Assembly: GCA_041738755.1 (NCBI GenBank)
Contig: JBGSPE010000005.1
Coordinates: forward strand, 207,872-271,871
Direction: 5' to 3'
Source: Minisyncoccia bacterium
GTDB lineage: Bacteria > Patescibacteriota > Minisyncoccia > Phycocordibacterales > UBA918
Length of the DNA stretch: 64,000 nucleotides
The notes beneath the pieces were generated by a model. That model had not been told where the DNA came from. It searched no databases and was given only the letters and a program-made list of their open reading frames with translations. Below, piece after piece: positions 3,643 to 30,243 of the stretch. The first letter of the stretch is position 1, and each line of letters opens with the position of its first letter. The translations under genes were made by a program, and so were the position numbers.

Positions 3643-3870
3643 ATGGATCAAGAGATTACAGCAGTTAAGGACGACCTTGTATATGGGATTGTGGAGGAAG
3701 CTCTACCCAATGCGCTTTTTCGTGTCAAAGTTGAGGGAGCAGATTCACTTCTGCTTGCGTACCTCTCGGGCCGAATGCGTAAGTTTCGTATTAGAGTTCT
3801 CGTAGGCGACAAAGTTGGTATGGTCACTGATCCGTACGGAGGGAAAGCCAGAATCACAAAGCGTATATAA
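3643..3870 (+). CDS. infA: translation initiation factor IF-1
   Basis: 75 aa containing GIVEEALPNALFRVKVEGADSLLLAYLSGRMRKFRIRVLVGDKV, the canonical IF-1 S1-like fold sequence. Confidence 0.95.
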   Translation: MDQEITAVKDDLVYGIVEEALPNALFRVKVEGADSLLLAYLSGRMRKFRIRVLVGDKVGMVTDPYGGKARITKRI

Positions 3871-3879
3871 CCATTATTT

Positions 3880-3996
3880 ATGAAAGTTCGATCATCAGTC
3901 AAAAAAATGAGTCCCGATGACAAAATCGTCAAACGACGTGGAGTTGTTTTCGTTATTAACAAAAAGAAGCCTCGACATAAGCAACGACAAGGATAA
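3880..3996 (+). CDS. rpmJ: ribosomal protein L36 (zinc-free C-minus form)
   Basis: A 38-aa ORF absent from the track: [38 protein letters not shown]. It aligns to L36, with the zinc ligands C11, C14 and C27 replaced by S, D and N. Its position after infA is canonical. Confidence 0.85.
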
Positions 3997-3998
3997 GT

Positions 3999-4376
3999 AT
4001 GAGAATTTCAGGTATCAATATTCCAGATGGTAAGCAACTTGCCTACGCACTGACTGCAGTATACGGAGTAGGACTTTCACGGTCTAAGAGTATTCTTGAC
4101 GAACTCTCTATCGCTCACACTAAGAAGCCGACTGATCTTACCACCGAAGAAGAGAACGCAATCCGTGAAAAGGTTGAAGCATTCCGAATCGAAGGAGAAC
4201 TTAAGCGAGAAGTTGCTGCCAATGTAAAGCGACTCAAGGACATTAGCTCATACCGTGGCTCACGTCACGCGAAGCGCCTTCCAGCTCGTGGACAACGAAC
4301 CAAAACAAATTCACGTACCTTAAAGGGTGCTAAGAAGACTATGGGTAGTGGACGACGTAAGTTAGAAAAGACTTAA
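3999..4376 (+). CDS. rpsM: ribosomal protein S13
   Basis: MRISGINIPDGKQLAYALTAVYGVG...SYRGSRHAKRLPARGQRTKTN. Confidence 0.95.
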   Translation: MRISGINIPDGKQLAYALTAVYGVGLSRSKSILDELSIAHTKKPTDLTTEEENAIREKVEAFRIEGELKREVAANVKRLKDISSYRGSRHAKRLPARGQRTKTNSRTLKGAKKTMGSGRRKLEKT

Positions 4377-4408
4377 AATTATTACTAATCATTGTATCGT
4401 AACGACAT

Positions 4409-4840
4409 ATGGGTAAGAAACGTATCATGAAGAAAAGTGGAGGGTCTGATGTGGCTGGAACGTCACGGGCTCTTAACCGTATCCCTAAGCGAAAGCTAGC
4501 GAGCGGAAAGCTAAACATCTTAGCGACTTTTAATAACACTTTGGTCACCCTCTGTGATCCAAAAGGAAACACTGTAATGGCCGCATCAAGTGGAGCATTA
4601 GGGTTTAAAGGTTCACGAAAAAGTACACCATTTGCTGCGGCAAAAGTCGGTGAAATTATCGGTGAAAAGGCTCAACAAATGGGTATGAAGGAAGCTGAAG
4701 TTGTAGTCCGAGGAGTAGGTGCTGGACGAGAGTCTGCCCTCCGAGCCTTTTCTGGGAAGGGAATTGGTATTACCAAAATCACCGACATGACACCGGTACC
4801 ATTTAATGGTCCACGGGCACCTAAGCCACGTCGAGTATAG
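4409..4840 (+). CDS. rpsK: ribosomal protein S11
   Basis: ILATFNNTLVTLCDPKGNTVMAASSGALGFKGSRKSTPFAA...; the true start may be an internal Met. Confidence 0.93.
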   Translation: MGKKRIMKKSGGSDVAGTSRALNRIPKRKLASGKLNILATFNNTLVTLCDPKGNTVMAASSGALGFKGSRKSTPFAAAKVGEIIGEKAQQMGMKEAEVVVRGVGAGRESALRAFSGKGIGITKITDMTPVPFNGPRAPKPRRV

Positions 4841-4850
4841 TAATTAGCGT

Positions 4851-5465
4851 ATGATAATCGGTCCAAAATTTAAAATTGCCAAGCGTCTTGGCGCCCCAAT
4901 CTTCGAAAAGACCCAAACTGCAAAGTTTGAGCTCTCTGTTGCACGTTCAGCCAACAAGCGAACTAACCGTCGTCCTGGTCAAGCGAGTGACTACAAGCGT
5001 CAGCTCATCGAAAAGCAAAAGATGCGGTTTACGTACGGTATTACCGAAAAGCAACTCCGACGCTACGTTGATGAATCAATTGCCAAGAAAGGTCACCAAC
5101 CAATCGCCCTTTTGATGGATCGACTTGAAACTCGACTTGATAACGTTGTGTACCGAATGGGTATCGCTAAAACCCGTCGTCTCGCTCGACAAATTGTTTC
5201 TCATGGTCACATCATTGTGAATGGGAAGCGATTGAACGTCCCTTCACACAAAGTTCGCGTAGGAGACGTTATTTCTATCCGTGAGGGTAGCAAGTCAAGT
5301 GCTCTCTTTGTCGGACTTAAAGAAACACATGAAGCTGTTGCGCTTCCAAACTGGGTTACTTTTGACCCAAAGAAACTAGAAGGGAAGGTAGCAGGAGCCC
5401 CGATTTATAACCCGTCTGAGACGCTCTTTGATCCAGAGCAGGTAATGGAATACTACAGTCGATAG
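4851..5465 (+). CDS. rpsD: ribosomal protein S4
   Basis: 204 aa; ...RLDNVVYRMGIAKTRRLARQIVSHGHIIVNGKRLNVPSHKV... Confidence 0.93.
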   Translation: MIIGPKFKIAKRLGAPIFEKTQTAKFELSVARSANKRTNRRPGQASDYKRQLIEKQKMRFTYGITEKQLRRYVDESIAKKGHQPIALLMDRLETRLDNVVYRMGIAKTRRLARQIVSHGHIIVNGKRLNVPSHKVRVGDVISIREGSKSSALFVGLKETHEAVALPNWVTFDPKKLEGKVAGAPIYNPSETLFDPEQVMEYYSR

Positions 5466-5502: not shown

Positions 5503-6468
5503 ATGTTAGAAACAAATGTAACTCTACCCTCAAAGCCTCGAGTAGTACATGAAGAAGAAAACCGAGGAACCTTTGAAATCGACGGTCTTTTTCCAGGCTA
5601 CGGGCACACCCTTGGTAACTCACTCCGACGAATCATCCTTTCATCTCTTCCAGGAGCTGCTATCACCCAAGTCAAAATTGATGGTGTAGAGCACGAATTC
5701 TCAGCCATGGACGGTGTTAAAGAAGACGTTATTGTCATTCTTTTAAACCTAAGACGAGTACGGCTTGCACTTCATAGCGACGAACCAGTGACTGTCTCAA
5801 TCAAGAAGAGTGGTATTGGTGTGATTACAGCTGCAGATATCACAGCGCCGAGTCAAGTTGAAATCCTCAACCCAGACCAAATCATTGCTGAAATCACAAA
5901 CAAGAACACAAAGTTCGACATGGAGATGACTATTGAGAAAGGTCTTGGATATGTCCCACGTGAAGTACACCAAAAAGACAAGATGAGTATCGGTGCGATT
6001 GCTATGGATGCAGTGTTCACTCCAATCCGACGTGCCAACTACGAAGTTGAGAACATGCGTGTTGGTGACCGAACTGACTACAACCGACTTCGCATCACCA
6101 TCGAAACTGATGGTACCTACTCAGCCCGTGAAGCGCTTGAGAAATCAATCGAAATCATGATTCACCAATTGAAGTCAATCATTGGCTTCCAGGATGAACA
6201 GCATCACAATGCAGCCGTTCCAGCAGCAGAGTCAGCTGAAGCGCCAAAGACCGAAGAACCTAACCAAGAAGTCCTTAAAACTCGTATCGAAACACTTGAT
6301 CTTACCAGCCGAACTCTCCAAGCTTTGGAGGCTGCATCTATCCGAACTATCGGAGGGCTTGTGCGAAAGAAAAAAGATGATATTCTAGCGCTCGACGGCA
6401 TTGGACCAAAAGGGCTTGAAGAAATCGTTGAGATGCTCGCCCGAATTAACCTCCGCCTTGAAGAATAA
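5503..6468 (+). CDS. rpoA: DNA-directed RNA polymerase alpha subunit
   Basis: 321 aa with an N-terminal dimerisation domain (GHTLGNSLRRILLSSLPGAA) and the C-terminal alpha-CTD HhH (LSVRSLNCLKK-like RTLQALEAASIRTIGGLV). Confidence 0.95.
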   Translation: MLETNVTLPSKPRVVHEEENRGTFEIDGLFPGYGHTLGNSLRRIILSSLPGAAITQVKIDGVEHEFSAMDGVKEDVIVILLNLRRVRLALHSDEPVTVSIKKSGIGVITAADITAPSQVEILNPDQIIAEITNKNTKFDMEMTIEKGLGYVPREVHQKDKMSIGAIAMDAVFTPIRRANYEVENMRVGDRTDYNRLRITIETDGTYSAREALEKSIEIMIHQLKSIIGFQDEQHHNAAVPAAESAEAPKTEEPNQEVLKTRIETLDLTSRTLQALEAASIRTIGGLVRKKKDDILALDGIGPKGLEEIVEMLARINLRLEE

Positions 6469-25079: not shown

Positions 25080-26027
25080 ATGTCAGATACTAAAAAACGT
25101 TTACTTACCGGACTACAGTCTTCGGGGACACTACACATTGGGAATTACTTTGGGGCTCTGAAGCCATTCCTCGATATCTACGAACAGTATGATAGCTACC
25201 TCATGGTAGCTGATTACCATGCCCTTACCTCAATCCGAGACCCGGAAGTGATGCGAGATAATATCATCAACGTGGTCAAAGACTATTTGGCTGTCGGGGT
25301 TGACCCTGAGAAAGCAATTATCTTCCGTCAGTCTGATAATCAGGACCATATGGAGCTTGGCTGGGTATTTAACTGTCTCGTGACAGTGCCATTTTTGATG
25401 CAGGCTCATTCGTATAAAGATAAGGTCGCCAAAGGACTTGAACCAAACGCCGGACTCTTTACCTACCCAATGCTGCAAGCAGCTGATATTGCTCTCTACA
25501 ACATCGATGTAGTGCCGGTCGGGGAAGATCAACGACAACATATTGAATACGCGAGAGAAGCGGTGGGTAAGTTTAATCGAGCGTTTGGAGAGACGCTGAA
25601 AGAGCCGGAAGAAATTATTCTCGATAGTGTCGGTGTCGTACCTGGAACCGACGGACAAAAGATGAGTAAGAGCTATGGTAATACCATTCCACTGTTTGGT
25701 ACCAAAGAAGAAATTGAGAAAGCTGTTATGAGTATCGTGACCGACTCGTCAGGCGAACGACCAGAACATGTGTACGCTATTCACCGTCTCTTGAAGCCGG
25801 CCGAAGAACTTGACCCAATCTACGAAACCCACAAAGGTCGCTACGGTGACTTGAAGAAACTACTCGCGGCTGATTTAGAAACCTTTATCGCTCCGATGCG
25901 AGAAAAGCGAGCCAGTCTTACCTTTGATGATGTAGCAGCCGTGCTCACCAATGGAAACATGAAAGCGAAAGAAGTCACAAGCCAAACCCTCGACCGAGTC
26001 CGTAAAGCTATTGGAATAAGTTTATAA
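25080..26027 (+). CDS. trpS: tryptophanyl-tRNA synthetase
   Basis: HIGH-type TGLQSSGTLHIGNY and KMSKS. Confidence 0.93.
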   Translation: MSDTKKRLLTGLQSSGTLHIGNYFGALKPFLDIYEQYDSYLMVADYHALTSIRDPEVMRDNIINVVKDYLAVGVDPEKAIIFRQSDNQDHMELGWVFNCLVTVPFLMQAHSYKDKVAKGLEPNAGLFTYPMLQAADIALYNIDVVPVGEDQRQHIEYAREAVGKFNRAFGETLKEPEEIILDSVGVVPGTDGQKMSKSYGNTIPLFGTKEEIEKAVMSIVTDSSGERPEHVYAIHRLLKPAEELDPIYETHKGRYGDLKKLLAADLETFIAPMREKRASLTFDDVAAVLTNGNMKAKEVTSQTLDRVRKAIGISL

Positions 26028-26028
26028 T

Positions 26029-26358
26029 ATGTCATTTGAAGGAACGTTTGTACCACAAGAAGGCAGGGAGCGTCGCATCAGCCGAGATGAAATTGTGCGC
26101 GATCTCGAAATCCTGCTCGAGGTAGATCAAAGCTTTAACCTAACTGGTCACTCAGTAGAGGTATTCAAACACCCAACAGTAGATACTTATGTGGTAGTTC
26201 AGCTTAAGAATAATGATGCGGAACCAGAAGAAGATAATTCTGTGTACAAAGGTTTGTTAACACGAATTGAATTAGGTAACGGAACTTTTGCCACAGAACG
26301 TATGGAAGTAAGCGAGTGGGAGGGACACCCGTGCCTGATTGTGATGTTACCAAACTAG
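26029..26358 (+). CDS. hypothetical protein (possible N-terminal half of a split gene)
   Basis: 109 aa, in the same reading frame as the next ORF and separated from it by a single TAG. Confidence 0.4.
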   Translation: MSFEGTFVPQEGRERRISRDEIVRDLEILLEVDQSFNLTGHSVEVFKHPTVDTYVVVQLKNNDAEPEEDNSVYKGLLTRIELGNGTFATERMEVSEWEGHPCLIVMLPN

Positions 26359-26370
26359 ATACGTAAACTT

Positions 26371-26856
26371 ATGGATACAACATTTTTGAAACAAGAGCTG
26401 ATTCGTGACTTAAGCAGTATTGATGCTGAAGACATACTTTCAGAGTGGGAATGGCTGTTGGAAGAAAAAATGGAGCTAGTTCTTGTATCCAGTATTGGAG
26501 ATATGTTCCTAAAAAATACTAAAGGGGAAATATTTTTACTAGACACACTTGGTGGTGAACTCAAGCGTGTTGCTGACTCCGAAAATGACTTCGCAGAACT
26601 ACTTACACACAAAGAAAAGCAAGAAGAGCTTCTATCAAGGACGTTTGTAGAAACACTAATTGAAAGCGGTAAGACATTGTCTCCAACAGAGATTTATAGT
26701 TTTATGGTCTTGCCAGTTCTAGGAGGCGACTTCACACCTGAAAATATCGAGCCCACTGACATATCAGTCCATTTTTCAATGACAGGCCAAATCCATAAGC
26801 AAGTACACGATCTTCCTGACGGAACTGAAATAGATGGCGTAGTTTTGGAATCTTAA
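26371..26856 (+). CDS. hypothetical protein (possible Tdi1/DUF1851-like immunity domain)
   Basis: IGDMFLKNTKGEIFLLDTLGGELKRVADSENDF resembles the GDxF..G..hhLD motif of DUF1851. This is a recollection, not verified. Confidence 0.35.
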   Translation: MDTTFLKQELIRDLSSIDAEDILSEWEWLLEEKMELVLVSSIGDMFLKNTKGEIFLLDTLGGELKRVADSENDFAELLTHKEKQEELLSRTFVETLIESGKTLSPTEIYSFMVLPVLGGDFTPENIEPTDISVHFSMTGQIHKQVHDLPDGTEIDGVVLES

Positions 26857-26869
26857 TCCTTGACGATAA

Positions 26870-27035
26870 ACATTTTTACCATTATCTTTACAGGAACCAT
26901 TGAAGCAGCTGACAACTGCTGAGGTAACATGAAACGAGGGCCACAAGGCCGAAGTAGGGTGGCACCGCGACTAATCAAACGATTGGAATCGCCCCTACAA
27001 AAGTATTACCAGTAATATTTTTGTAGGGGCGATTT
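26870..27035 (+). promoter_or_regulatory. T-box riboswitch leader (Asp specifier) upstream of aspS
   Basis: The T-box core AGGGTGGCACCGCG sits at 26956-26969. An antiterminator can form from GTAGGG/CCCTAC and GCGA/TCGC, with a UGGC bulge that pairs with a G73 discriminator. The competing 16-bp stem is AATCGCCCCTACAAAA/TTTTGTAGGGGCGATT (26985-27033). The specifier hairpin GCAG-CTGACAA-CTGC carries GAC followed by A. Confidence 0.75.
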
Positions 27036-27057
27036 ACGTTCCTGCACAACACACACT

Positions 27058-28410
27058 ATGGAACGAACACTTATTGCAGATTTAAAAGAACATGTTGGAA
27101 GCGAAGTCTTAATTAACGGGGTCGTCAATGTTGCTCGACATCAGGGTAAGATGGCATTTTTCGACTTTAGAGACCGAACAAGCCTTATTCAAGGGGTTGT
27201 TTTTGGTAAACCTGAGGTACTTGAAGTAGCAAAAGAAATAGGTACCGAATATGCCGTAGCGGTAACCGGTATGGTAAATAAGCGCCCAGAAAAAATGGTG
27301 AACGCTGTAGCACCAAACGGTGATATTGAACTTGAAATCACTGGTATAGAAATACTCAATCAGTCTGAAGCGATGCCGTTTGATATGGACGCTGACTTCT
27401 CACTTGATGTACTCCTCGATAATCGACCACTGACCCTGAGGCGCCCACGAGAGCGAGCTATTTTTAAAATTCAACACACCATCATTACTGCCTATCGACA
27501 GTTTCTGGTGTCTGAAGGGTTTACTGAATTTCATGCCCCGAAGCTCGTAGGGGGTGACGCTGAAGGTGGGGCTGAGGTATTTAAGGTTGAGTACTTTGAT
27601 GGAAAAAGTGCCTATCTTGCAACTAGTCCACAGCTCTACAAGCAAATGATGGTAGGGGTATTTGAGCGAGTTTTCACTGCTGGTTCAATGTTCCGAGCTG
27701 AGAAAAGCGCCACCACGAGACACATGAGCGAGATTGCCATGCTCGATCTTGAAATGGGCTTTATCAAAGATCACACTGACGTCATTGCCTTGGTGACAAA
27801 ACTCATGCAATTCATCACCACAGAGGTCAGTGAACGATGCGCGGCTGAACTGAGCTACCTTGAGATGCCAGGTGCGTTAGCACCAGAAGCATTCCCCGTG
27901 ATGACCCTGCGAGAAGCACAAGAATTGATTAAAAAAGAAACGGGAGTTGATAAAACAAAAGAACCAGATCTTGAACCGGAAGATGAGCGATTCCTTTGTG
28001 AGTATGCTAATACACACTGGCAATCAGACTTTGTGTTTGTAACTCATTTCCCAACCAGCAAGCGGCCCTTCTATACCCACATTGACCCTGATCAACCTGA
28101 ATTTACCCGAAGTTTTGACCTCTTGTTCCGTGGCCTTGAAATGTGTTCAGGCGGACAGCGCGTTCACAAGTACGACGACTTAGTTGCTCGTATCAAGAGC
28201 AAAGGACTTGATCCTGATAAGTTTGAATTTTACCTCCAAGCCTTCAAGTATGGTATTCCACCACATGGAGGAATTGGAATGGGTCTAGAACGACTAACTA
28301 TGAAATACTCCGGGGTCAAAAACGTGAAAGAAGCCAGCCTCTTCCCGAGAGATATGAACCGTATTGACCTCTTATTATCAGAAGGAGAGAGTAGTGAAGC
28401 GGCCTCGTAA
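27058..28410 (+). CDS. aspS: aspartyl-tRNA synthetase, short archaeal/eukaryal-type class IIb
   Basis: 450 aa with an N-terminal OB fold, class II motifs (FRAE, GGIGMGLERL) and SPQLYKQ. The T-box specifier GAC supports the Asp assignment. Confidence 0.85.
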   Translation: MERTLIADLKEHVGSEVLINGVVNVARHQGKMAFFDFRDRTSLIQGVVFGKPEVLEVAKEIGTEYAVAVTGMVNKRPEKMVNAVAPNGDIELEITGIEILNQSEAMPFDMDADFSLDVLLDNRPLTLRRPRERAIFKIQHTIITAYRQFLVSEGFTEFHAPKLVGGDAEGGAEVFKVEYFDGKSAYLATSPQLYKQMMVGVFERVFTAGSMFRAEKSATTRHMSEIAMLDLEMGFIKDHTDVIALVTKLMQFITTEVSERCAAELSYLEMPGALAPEAFPVMTLREAQELIKKETGVDKTKEPDLEPEDERFLCEYANTHWQSDFVFVTHFPTSKRPFYTHIDPDQPEFTRSFDLLFRGLEMCSGGQRVHKYDDLVARIKSKGLDPDKFEFYLQAFKYGIPPHGGIGMGLERLTMKYSGVKNVKEASLFPRDMNRIDLLLSEGESSEAAS

Positions 28411-28812: not shown

Positions 28813-30243
28813 ATGAGTACTATCACCACCACACCAAAAGCTATTTCATCTGTACCAAAAAAATATTGCACGATTGTCTTGACTGAGGACAACGCTAACT
28901 GGCACCGCTTGGTTGAAACAACTGACGGACGACTTGAGTACCGACTTGGAGCAGGGAAGCAAAAAGAGTGGACTATGCGGACATTCCGCACCCTCGTGCG
29001 AACAGTCGTACAAGCAGCCAAAAATCATCAACTAGAAACAATTGCGCTAGAGATTAATCCAACAGTCTCACCAAAACTCAAAGAAGCTGGCGAAGCGTGG
29101 TTTTACCGTACCCTAGCCGAAAACCTTTCCCTCGCACAGTACGAGTTTCGTCGCTACAAAAGTAAAACAAAAACCACCAAAGACCTGAAAGAAATTCTCG
29201 TCTGCGGAATTGAGACTAAGGTCCAAAAAGACAGTTTTGCAACTGGCCTGATTGTTGCGGAAGCCGCCAACTATACCCGTGACGTCTGTAATACTTCAGC
29301 GGAGGAAATGACCCCTGAAAAACTCGCCAAAGCAGCTGTTGATGGACTCAAAGGGACAAAAGCCATTGTCAAAGTTCTCAAGCAAACGGAGATTGCTAAA
29401 GAAAAAATGGGACTCCTTGAAGCAGTAGGCAAGGGGGCAAAGGACGGCGCGCGATTTATCATCATTGAATATTGGGGGAGCGGGAAGTCAACTGGTAAAG
29501 GGACAACAAATCAACCAATCGTTTTGATTGGTAAGGGTATTACCTACGATACCGGGGGACTTAATGTAAAACCATCTGGTTCAATGCACGAAATGCACCT
29601 TGATATGTCTGGTGGTGGTTCAGTGATTGGCGCTATGCGCGCAATTGCGAAACTTGGTCTTAAAAAGAATGTCATTGGTCTGATTCCAGCGGCGGAGAAT
29701 TCTGTGTCTGCAAGTAGTATGCGAGCGGGTGATATCGCCACCTCAATGTCCGGTCAAACGGTAGAAATCTTACACACTGACGCTGAAGGACGCCTTGTCC
29801 TCGCTGACGCAATGACCTACGCGCAAAAATACTATAAGCCGAGCGTCATGATTGATATTGCTACCCTTACCGGGGCGGCTTTGGTAGCACTTGGACAACA
29901 AGCGTCTGTCATTATGACCAAAGACGAGACACTGCAAACTACCCTCACTAAGCTCGGGGAGGAAAGTGGTGATTGGGTGTGGCCACTACCACTGTGGGAT
30001 GAGTATAAAGCAACCCTCAAAAGCACCCGAGCTGACATCTCAAACATCGCCACCAACTTCGCTCGGTGGGGCGGTACGATTGAAGGTGGCACCTTCTTGT
30101 CATTTTTTGCCGACAAAGATGTGCCGTGGGTGCATATTGATATGGCGCCACGAATGGAAAGTATTGCGAGTGACAAGCTCGCCAAGGGTGCAACCGGAGA
30201 ACCGGTACGACTCCTCGTAAAATTCGTTGAAAATGGCGTATGA
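28813..30243 (+). CDS. pepA: leucyl aminopeptidase (M17)
   Basis: The NTDAEGRL signature; VILIGKGITYDTGG. Confidence 0.9.
   Translation: MSTITTTPKAISSVPKKYCTIVLTEDNANWHRLVETTDGRLEYRLGAGKQKEWTMRTFRTLVRTVVQAAKNHQLETIALEINPTVSPKLKEAGEAWFYRTLAENLSLAQYEFRRYKSKTKTTKDLKEILVCGIETKVQKDSFATGLIVAEAANYTRDVCNTSAEEMTPEKLAKAAVDGLKGTKAIVKVLKQTEIAKEKMGLLEAVGKGAKDGARFIIIEYWGSGKSTGKGTTNQPIVLIGKGITYDTGGLNVKPSGSMHEMHLDMSGGGSVIGAMRAIAKLGLKKNVIGLIPAAENSVSASSMRAGDIATSMSGQTVEILHTDAEGRLVLADAMTYAQKYYKPSVMIDIATLTGAALVALGQQASVIMTKDETLQTTLTKLGEESGDWVWPLPLWDEYKATLKSTRADISNIATNFARWGGTIEGGTFLSFFADKDVPWVHIDMAPRMESIASDKLAKGATGEPVRLLVKFVENGV

Follow-up and report, generated by a model that had tools for sequence, protein, structure and literature searches.

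An ultrashort candidate T-box riboswitch without Stem II upstream of a nondiscriminating aspS gene in a CPR bacterium

T-box riboswitches are regarded as a feature of Firmicutes and Actinobacteria, and the literature that we searched holds nothing linking them to the candidate phyla radiation (CPR), Patescibacteria or Parcubacteria. What, then, is to be made of an RNA leader of only about 100 nucleotides that carries T-box hallmarks and precedes an aspartyl-tRNA synthetase (AspRS) gene in just such a bacterium? The leader lies in a 64,000-nucleotide stretch of contig JBGSPE010000005.1 (hereafter the window, from whose first nucleotide all coordinates are counted), and a sequence-only reading of that stretch had proposed a T-box with an Asp specifier at 26870-27035. 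We conclude that the T-box leader at 26896-27045 (+), located 5′ of an archaeal-type aspS gene, probably senses uncharged tRNA-Asp (anticodon GUC, discriminator base G73) and controls the expression of this nondiscriminating synthetase. Judging from the comparison of homologous leaders, membership in the T-box family is close to certain, and specificity for Asp is very likely. The intergenic space between a small open reading frame (ORF) ending at 26856 and the ORF at 27058-28410 holds all the features that the sequence-only reading had listed, and the elements that we recognize there are these:

26860-26888, forward strand: promoter-like site with TTGACG (-35), a 17-nt spacer and TATCTT (-10); 9 of 12 matches in a consensus scan
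26896-26903, forward strand: bulged strand of a predicted kink-turn (K-turn), comprising the C-stem strand ACC (26896-26898), the bulge AUU, and G26902 and A26903; GA invariant, covariation
26904-26920, forward strand: ultrashort Stem I, a 17-nt hairpin of 4-5 base pairs with the apical loop CUGACAA (26909-26915); covariation
26921-26925, forward strand: non-bulged strand of the K-turn, comprising G26921 and A26922 and then GGU, which pairs with ACC 26896-26898; covariation
26926-26938, forward strand: A-rich single-stranded linker AACAUGAAACGAG of 13 nt, ending in RAG (GAG, 26936-26938); direct reading
26939-26950, forward strand: Stem III, GGCC/GGCC with the loop ACAA, followed by G and AA (26951-26953); canonical pairs
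26954-26998, forward strand: antiterminator, with helix A1 (26954-26959 with 26993-26998), a bulge (26960-26966), helix A2 (26967-26970 with 26989-26992) and a cap hairpin (26972-26976 with 26981-26985); covariation
26988-27033, forward strand: competing 21-bp hairpin (terminator or sequestrator) with arms 26988-27008 and 27013-27033, sharing 26988-26998 with the antiterminator; minimum-free-energy fold, covariation
27032-27042, forward strand: U-rich tail AUUUACGUUCC; terminator-like in a simple scan
27023-27045, forward strand: alternative 9-bp hairpin, called 3:4, formed by GUAGGGGCG (27023-27031) with CGUUCCUGC (27037-27045) around the loop AUUUA; covariation
27058-28410, forward strand: aspS, encoding a nondiscriminating (archaeal-type) AspRS of 450 amino acids, with no Shine-Dalgarno (SD) sequence upstream; NF003483, TIGR00458, Pfam

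Several lines of evidence carry the assignment of this leader to the T-box family. First, the leader contains the T-box sequence itself. The segment AGGGTGGCACCGCG (26956-26969), which the sequence-only reading had called near-consensus, matches the 14-nt consensus AGGGUGGNACCGCG exactly, and it is the sole match in the 64 kb at no more than one mismatch, where 0.02 would be expected by chance. Second, the bulged antiterminator that had been proposed around this sequence is present: A1 (GTAGGG/CCCTAC) and A2 (GCGA/TCGC) enclose the 7-nt bulge TGGCACC, and every pair is canonical. The comparative data come from 164 loci encoding relatives of the AspRS (GTDB species genomes and metagenomes supplied 80 each, and exact protein look-up another 4), whose leaders were aligned module by module, with 500 column shuffles and slid 3′ partners serving as controls for covariation. 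Among 39 leaders, A1 and A2 are paired in 97.4% of cells and 4 of 10 pairs show compensatory changes, a result reached by none of the 500 shuffles. Third, the antiterminator has a mutually exclusive competitor that uses its 3′ strand, nucleotides 26988-26998 being common to both structures. This competing stem had been described as 16 bp long, and in fact spans 21 bp with a stability of -30.2 kcal/mol on its own; it appears in the minimum-free-energy fold of the 214-nt leader (z = -7.4). Its lower part is paired in 93.9% of cells in 28 leaders, with compensatory changes in 7 of 14 pairs and with at most one of 500 shuffles (0-1) reaching the observed result. The T-box identity that had been proposed from the letters of one genome is thus upheld by covariation, with compensatory changes seen in sets of 28-39 homologous leaders.

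A fourth line of evidence is found at the base and tip of Stem I. Leaders of this family carry CC-NNN-GA 5′ and GA-GG 3′ of Stem I, which is the sequence signature of a K-turn, and the GA dinucleotides are invariant. The window reads CC-AUU-GA and GA-GG at these positions, and a K-turn with its GA motif is accordingly predicted at the Stem I base. The C-stem (26896-26898 with 26923-26925) is 96% paired in 33 leaders with compensatory changes in all three of its pairs, and the Stem I helix is 96.9% paired with compensatory changes in four of four, matched by none of the 500 shuffles. Taken together, these two helices are paired in 96.5% of cells, show compensatory changes in 7 of 7 pairs and are likewise equaled by no shuffle, whereas sliding the 3′ partner by 1-3 columns leaves only 26-56% of cells paired.

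Stem I of the window joins GCAG (26905-26908) to CTGC (26916-26919) and closes the 7-nt loop CTGACAA, so that, as the sequence-only reading had noticed, a short hairpin presents GAC (26911-26913) followed by A26914: an Asp codon that matches the amino acid of the downstream gene, and then the conserved purine. As we read the sequence, this C-U-GAC-A-A loop is laid out like an anticodon loop, the triplet being preceded by U and followed by a purine. Across 34 leaders the triplet is GAC in 29, GAU in 3 and AAC in 2, with the middle A and the following A invariant, and therefore the tolerated changes are limited to a synonymous Asp codon and an Asn codon. Both AAC leaders (L063, 9009-9032; L117, 1188-1211) hold the triplet in the same loop register as GAC. 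In these two, the riboswitch scaffold seems to have been readjusted to read the second tRNA that a nondiscriminating AspRS charges.

The remaining parts of the core agree with this assignment. Stem III differs completely in sequence from species to species and the hairpin is always formed, and it is flanked by the purines described for T-boxes (PMC7583486; PMC11297988), namely RAG on the 5′ side (GAG, 26936-26938) and AA on the 3′ side (26952-26953), the AA being invariant or nearly so. The four bulge nucleotides UGGC are complementary to the 3′-GCCA of a tRNA with G73 and therefore predict this discriminator; they are retained in all leaders except two (UGGU in L004 and L025). Bacterial tRNA-Asp carries G73 as a conserved identity element. 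In 1.86 Mb of sequence (the window plus related loci), 22 tRNAs were detected, of which one is a tRNA-Asp(GUC) (L017) and one a tRNA-Asn(GUU) (L036); both have G73, and so the discriminator check that had been called for turns out favorably in related Paceibacteria.

The product of aspS scores 486.9 bits against the NF003483 aspartate--tRNA(Asn) ligase equivalog (cut-off 353), also matches TIGR00458, and contains the Pfam tRNA-synt_2 and OB anticodon-binding domains. Because it reaches the NF003483 equivalog, we assign it to the nondiscriminating, archaeal-type AspRS enzymes, in keeping with the earlier description of the gene. Its closest relatives (74-93% identity) are encoded by metagenome-assembled genomes of Candidatus Paceibacterota/Parcubacteria; judging from them, the host is a CPR/Patescibacteria bacterium of the Paceibacteria/Parcubacteria, as had been suspected.

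The extent of the RNA needs some revision. The promoter-like site at 26860-26888, which we presume to act as the promoter of this transcript, places the start near 26896, so nucleotides 26870-26895 would belong to the promoter and not to the riboswitch. Similar -10-like boxes occur a few nucleotides 5′ of the K-turn in relatives as well, and the functional RNA probably starts near 26895-26896. The span given by the sequence-only reading is therefore shifted at both ends, in that its first 26 nucleotides would be promoter and the conserved element runs on to 27045. Counted from the K-turn through the antiterminator, the window copy is 103 nt long, the joint shortest in the leader set.

By its defining core, which comprises the T-box sequence, the bulged antiterminator, the competing hairpin, the specifier, the K-turn and Stem III, the element is a T-box. 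Three of the usual family features fail, these being the Stem I platform, Stem II with the IIA/B pseudoknot and the G.U sensor pair, and the Rfam threshold is missed as well. There is no long Stem I with a distal platform for the tRNA elbow, since the 17-nt hairpin ends in the specifier loop. There is also no Stem II with an S-turn and no IIA/B pseudoknot in the window, because only 13 nt separate the K-turn from Stem III, and the AGUAGA/GAA motif is absent. A Stem II hidden in the linker was considered and ruled out: the linker is 13 nt long, and RNAalifold predicts no linker structure from 10 Stem-II-less leaders. The same unguided run recovered the K-turn stem, Stem I, Stem III, A1, the bulge, A2 and the A2 cap hairpin.

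The AGUAGA S-turn motif is missing from 20 of 34 leaders, that of the window among them. Fourteen relatives keep a full plan of the kind known from actinobacterial ileS leaders, with a Stem II bearing the GAA/AGUA S-turn signature and an IIA/B-type pseudoknot, and the window and about 17 other leaders lack both Stem II and IIA/B. Where the AspRS is 90-92% identical to that of the window, one leader (L161) has Stem II and the pseudoknot and three (L162, L163 and L164) have neither. Because both architectures occur among such similar enzymes, the loss of Stem II is recent and has probably happened repeatedly. The Stem-II-less leaders retain every other functional element, and their linkers diverge freely.

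How does this architecture compare with T-boxes that are already known? An ultrashort Stem I has been described for actinobacterial ileS leaders in work by Sherwood, Grundy and Henkin (2015), as related in PMC7583486. Those RNAs (Mycobacterium tuberculosis, Nocardia farcinica; TBDB class II) resemble the window leader in having a K-turn, a very short Stem I with an apical specifier and no elbow platform (PMC7583486), and Stem III and the discriminator are also common to both. The likeness to ileS leaders that the sequence-only reading had pointed out consequently holds for Stem I and stops there in the window, where the ileS Stem II and IIA/B pseudoknot are missing. It is the Stem-II-containing relatives (for example L161 and L001) that closely match the ileS decoding module, with its GAA/AGUA S-turn and IIA/B-type pseudoknot. 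Unlike the ileS T-boxes, the window leader and about 17 relatives lack Stem II and IIA/B, which are essential for tRNA binding by the ileS RNAs; the expression platform here is a 21-bp hairpin with a U-rich tail and involves no pairing between SD and anti-SD; and the leader regulates aspS, through an Asp or Asn specifier, in a host from the Patescibacteria (CPR).

The glyQS T-boxes of Bacillus and Geobacillus offer a second point of comparison. In common with the window leader, they run from Stem I through a flexible linker to Stem III and the antiterminator with neither Stem II nor IIA/B in between, have a K-turn at the foot of Stem I, and switch between terminator and antiterminator (PMC7583486; PMC11297988). 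They differ in having a long Stem I with a distal double T-loop platform that stacks on the tRNA elbow, and a specifier located in an internal loop. Moreover, the window leader would form a GAC:GUC codon-anticodon helix, not the all-G/C GGC:GCC helix that is said to make Stem II dispensable. The leader in the window thus combines both reductions, the ultrashort Stem I of the ileS type and the loss of Stem II of the glyQS type, and in the literature that we searched, no non-glycine T-box lacking both the elbow platform and Stem II is described.

The Firmicutes leaders of RF00230, which include aspS and hisS-aspS leaders with GAC, have in common with the window copy the 14-nt T-box sequence, the pairing of the bulge with NCCA, a specifier with a purine after it, a target gene that encodes an aminoacyl-tRNA synthetase, and an intrinsic terminator as read-out. 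In contrast, the window copy has no distal Stem I region, internal specifier loop, Stem II or pseudoknot, a G-C pair replaces the G.U at the base of A2, and there is an extra conserved hairpin 3′ of the terminator. Finally, the NT-box of Clostridium acetobutylicum controls a tRNA-dependent asparagine pathway, according to the papers by Saad et al. (2012, 2013) that PMC4574755 cites. Judging by the cited titles, that T-box ties the asparagine pathway of a nondiscriminating AspRS to the charging of tRNA-Asn, for which the AAC leaders L063 and L117 offer a parallel. The NT-box is a long, canonical, two-codon Firmicute T-box, whereas the AAC leaders here are ultrashort with a single codon, and the window reads Asp.

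Covariation establishes the fold, and by analogy with the known T-box mechanism we can propose how the fold might act. The transcript would open with the K-turn bearing the 17-nt Stem I, whose apical loop (CU-GAC-AA), resembling an anticodon loop, would display the Asp codon, and the unstructured 13-nt linker would run straight to Stem III and the antiterminator. An uncharged tRNA would place its anticodon on GAC and its 3′-GCCA on the bulge UGGC, thereby stabilizing the antiterminator (26954-26998). The 21-bp hairpin (26988-27033) would be blocked as a result, and RNA polymerase would pass the U-rich tail and proceed into aspS. A charged tRNA would be unable to stabilize the antiterminator, such that the hairpin would form and transcription would end. 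In the RNA produced by read-through, the freed 3′ arm of the terminator would pair with CGUUCCUGC at 27037-27045, which probably locks the ON fold and probably keeps the U-rich segment away from the start-codon region.

In its fullest form, which we put forward only tentatively, this proposal describes a natural T-box of about 100 nt in which tRNA is recognized by a K-turn specifier hairpin and the discriminator alone. A relay of four segments (antiterminator, terminator, 3:4 hairpin and start region) would connect recognition to transcription termination and to SD-independent initiation, in a bacterium that lacks an SD/anti-SD system.

We consider transcription attenuation to be the most likely mechanism, with a possible second layer of control at translation. 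The window tail, TTTACGTTCC, is an interrupted U tract, yet it passes a simple terminator scan. Tails elsewhere in the family are richer in U, with at least five U residues among the first eight nucleotides in 32 of 40 leaders (median 6), compared with four in the window (UUACGUUC). The earlier remark that the terminator lacks a proper U tract is therefore apt insofar as the tract of the window is interrupted, and it gives too bleak a picture of a tail that is recognized as terminator-like and whose relatives are mostly U-rich. Furthermore, the hairpin and its tail are kept in eight loci where aspS begins 72-719 nt downstream and another gene or a conserved insert lies in between. Given the U-rich tails of the family and the hairpins kept far from aspS, attenuation is the best-supported common mechanism.

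The segment that follows the terminator is of interest in its own right. Nucleotides 27037-27045 (CGUUCCUGC) are a copy, with U in place of C, of the strand CGCCCCUAC that the antiterminator and terminator share, and they can pair with the 3′ arm of the terminator. In 28 leaders, this 3:4 pairing is formed in 91.8% of cells, as opposed to 48-62% in slid controls. Compensatory changes, such as GAGGGGCG/CGUUCCUC in L009 and UCGGAGGGG/UUUCUCCGA in L117, affect three pairs and 10 cells, a level that one shuffle in 500 attains. For the window, the calculated energy of the ON (antiterminator) fold is -23.2 kcal/mol without the 3:4 hairpin and -35.9 kcal/mol with it, a contribution of -12.7 kcal/mol, and that of the OFF (terminator) fold is -43.8 kcal/mol. 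On the strength of this covariation we treat the 3:4 hairpin as a real structure, whose role may be to lock the ON fold and possibly to relieve occlusion of the start codon.

These same observations lend some appeal to another model, which we nonetheless regard as unlikely, wherein the T-box is mainly translational. The 21-bp hairpin would then be a sequestrator: in the OFF state, the free CGUUCC at 27037-27042 would pair with GGAACG in the start region (27060-27065, within AUG-GAA-CGA) and block initiation, and in the ON state GUAGGGGCG would capture CGUUCCUGC to leave the start codon exposed. A conserved, covarying 3:4 hairpin is what this model needs, and the hairpin narrows the gap between ON and OFF from 20.6 to 7.9 kcal/mol, as expected of a reversible switch. 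The CGUUCC:GGAACG pairing is 82.7% formed in register compared with 36-48% in slid controls, and a partition-function model predicts that the start region goes from 0.48 to 0.66 unpaired when the 3′ arm is free (25 of 31 leaders). The U tract of the window is weak, and the T-boxes with an ultrashort Stem I known so far are translational (PMC7583486). However, the covariation test reveals no compensatory change in the tail:start pairing and gives a result no better than column shuffles; the pairing is lost where codon 2 differs (L007, L011), and U-rich tails would pair with the purine-rich AUGGAAMGAA from composition alone. The hairpin and U tract are also kept where aspS starts 72-719 nt downstream. 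The translational model is in part a complement to attenuation, as both controls could act together.

A more conventional form of translational control, the sequestration of an SD sequence, was also considered. It is ruled unlikely because neither aspS nor the organism in general makes use of SD sequences: none precedes aspS in any member of the family, and of the 65 window ORFs with 120 or more amino acids, just 5 have an SD-like motif in front of them. The sequestration that the sequence-only reading had offered as an alternative to termination thus finds little room here, all the more so where the hairpin and tail are kept far from aspS.

The scarcity of SD sequences is accompanied by another trait. 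In front of many ORFs of the window, at a distance of 6-10 nt from the ATG, there is a TAnnnT box that resembles a -10 element (for example gtataatacagctATG and ggtataatagctagattATG; the ORFs cited in this survey of SD motifs and -10 boxes are those at 998, 42735(-), 51804, 57406 and 59559(-)), which suggests that leaderless mRNAs, or mRNAs with very short leaders, are widespread in this organism. In a related Paceibacteria locus, the 3′ end of the 16S rRNA (L036:1-342) reads ...GGUCGUGGAUUAAUUCAAUU and is without the CCUCC anti-SD.

Returning to the T-box as a sensor of tRNA-Asp that acts chiefly by attenuation, we note that several observations weigh against it. The first concerns affinity: a truncated Stem I without Stem II shows barely detectable tRNA binding, Stem II is essential once the elbow platform is gone, and only glycine T-boxes do without Stem II, which is credited to their all-G/C codon-anticodon helix (PMC7583486; PMC11297988). 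In addition, the window lacks the G.U wobble at the base of A2, which is the main sensor of the aminoacyl group (PMC7583486). The pair beside the bulge is G26967-C26992 there, and among 39 leaders it is G-C in 34, G.U in 3 and A-U in 1. The U tract is interrupted (UUUACGUU, with 4 U in 8). A tRNA search found no tRNA gene in the window, and hence the G73 check rests on related genomes and not on the window's own. Lastly, a local E-value search with RF00230 gives the leader 19.4 bits, far from the gathering score of 93.

The failure at Rfam can be accounted for. At gathering scores, Rfam has no match anywhere in the window, and in seven related loci, Stem-II-containing leaders included, no T-box match reaches the gathering score either. 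The local alignment to RF00230 is partial, with only Stem III and the antiterminator aligning convincingly. Because RF00230 requires a long Stem I, Rfam is unsuitable as a decisive test, and the search that the sequence-only reading had recommended, although negative, was the wrong instrument. The TBDB class II model has reportedly been searched only in Actinobacteria.

The problem of affinity invites a different answer, in which the RNA by itself cannot hold the tRNA and a protein or other trans-acting factor, such as an L7Ae-family protein that binds K-turns, replaces the contacts made by Stem II and the platform. When Stem II is missing, a truncated Stem I is reported to bind tRNA barely detectably, and T-boxes may receive help from proteins that bind K-turns (PMC7583486); the K-turn is strictly conserved in this family. 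We nevertheless find this improbable, since no candidate gene emerged, the Stem-II-less loci share no conserved neighbor, and the occurrence of leaders with and without Stem II in genomes whose AspRS are more than 90% identical disfavors a lineage-specific cofactor. That the leader is instead a decaying relic, which stopped responding to tRNA once Stem II was lost and now works only as an attenuator that is constitutive and leaky, would suit the shortest architecture of the family (103 nt) and the weaker U tract of the window, but it is hardly credible. In about 17 leaders without Stem II, drawn from different species, the linkers and Stem III have become completely different in sequence, yet the K-turn GA.GA, the specifier with its A, the RAG/AA purines, an exact T-box sequence and the two alternative helices are all retained, the pattern expected from purifying selection on a working sensor.

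A T-box that senses tRNA-Asp in this setting would matter in several ways. A whole T-box family governing an essential synthetase appears to reside in the reduced genomes of Paceibacteria (CPR), where it is invisible to Rfam. The window copy lacks both modules that are thought to give T-boxes their affinity for tRNA, and it has Stem-II-bearing kin whose AspRS is more than 90% identical, so that the two form a natural matched pair with which the minimal needs of a tRNA-sensing RNA can be addressed; at about 100 nt, it might also serve as a compact scaffold for engineering. If the RNA does work alone, the view that a non-glycine T-box cannot dispense with both the platform and Stem II would need to be revised. 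The Asp-to-Asn switch of the specifier fits the dual substrate range of a nondiscriminating AspRS, and the extra conserved 3:4 hairpin hints at a way of wiring a riboswitch to gene expression where initiation is not led by SD sequences.

The T-box is not confined to close kin of the window organism. The sequence GGGTGG(C/T)ACC(G/A)CG lies upstream of aspS in 39 loci, and a covariance model of the discriminator domain adds five, which brings the total to about 44 aspS T-boxes among the roughly 155 Paceibacteria loci whose upstream sequence is available. The same model finds exactly one T-box in the window, and neither it nor the motif search detects a further one there, for example upstream of trpS. 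Carriers include Kaiserbacteria, Nomurabacteria, Adlerbacteria, Taylorbacteria and Paceibacter. Presence of the T-box follows the relatedness of the AspRS to the window enzyme:

AspRS identity of at least 70%: T-box in 15 of 17 loci
AspRS identity of 64-70%: T-box in 9 of 20 loci
AspRS identity of 58-64%: T-box in 9 of 33 loci
AspRS identity of 50-58%: T-box in 6 of 77 loci

Some of these loci show variations in what follows the T-box. In L027, an Asp T-box (5684-5926; GAC, with Stem II) precedes a Peptidase_S51 ORF that begins at 5950, and aspS follows about 700 nt further on. We take Peptidase_S51 to be the aspartyl-dipeptidase/cyanophycinase family, a member of which would make sense under an Asp T-box as a source of aspartate, and the arrangement suggests a starvation-induced operon for both the supply and the charging of this amino acid. 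In two other loci a conserved insert separates the T-box terminator from aspS (L002:2390-2504 and L088:3605-4000); both inserts start with AUGAG(C/U)(G/A)AAG..., and that of L088 opens a 128-amino-acid ORF with no Pfam match.

The genes around the leader in the window are as follows. Directly 5′ of it, the ORF at 26371-26856 (+) encodes a T6SS_Tdi1_C domain (type VI immunity protein; E = 9e-15), a surprising find for a CPR genome. Neither of the two small ORFs at 26029-26358 and 28447-28809 matches any family above threshold. The trpS gene (25080-26027, +) is situated about 1 kb upstream of aspS, and a leucyl aminopeptidase gene (Peptidase_M17; 28813-30243, +) comes after aspS on the same strand. 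The order trpS ... aspS - pepA is conserved in L161-L164. In L162, whose AspRS is about 90% identical to that of the window, two extra class II tRNA-synt_2 paralogues (1589-2725 and 3653-4933; 378 and 426 amino acids) are encoded a few kilobases upstream of aspS, and these could be AsnRS-like or AsnA-like.

Two further observations come from other loci. In 11 more distant loci without an aspS T-box (L013, L026, L053, L056, L059, L061, L064, L066, L071, L076 and L079), aspS is preceded at 1.8-9 kb by a same-strand tRNA-Tyr(GUA) gene, so that the synteny is conserved; apart from this, tRNA genes are few, with the 22 mentioned above found in 1.86 Mb. In addition, L011 (6102-6152, -) and L061 (2853-2906, +) carry T-box-like leaders that score below the Rfam threshold, with the sequences GGGTGGTACCACG and GGGTGGTACCGCG, each followed by a terminator-like hairpin and preceded by a hairpin with the loop UGCGGUAGUG or UGCGUAAGUG. 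The UGGU of these leaders therefore predicts A73, and both precede genes of the glutamate-cysteine ligase family 2 (GCS2)/amidoligase type.

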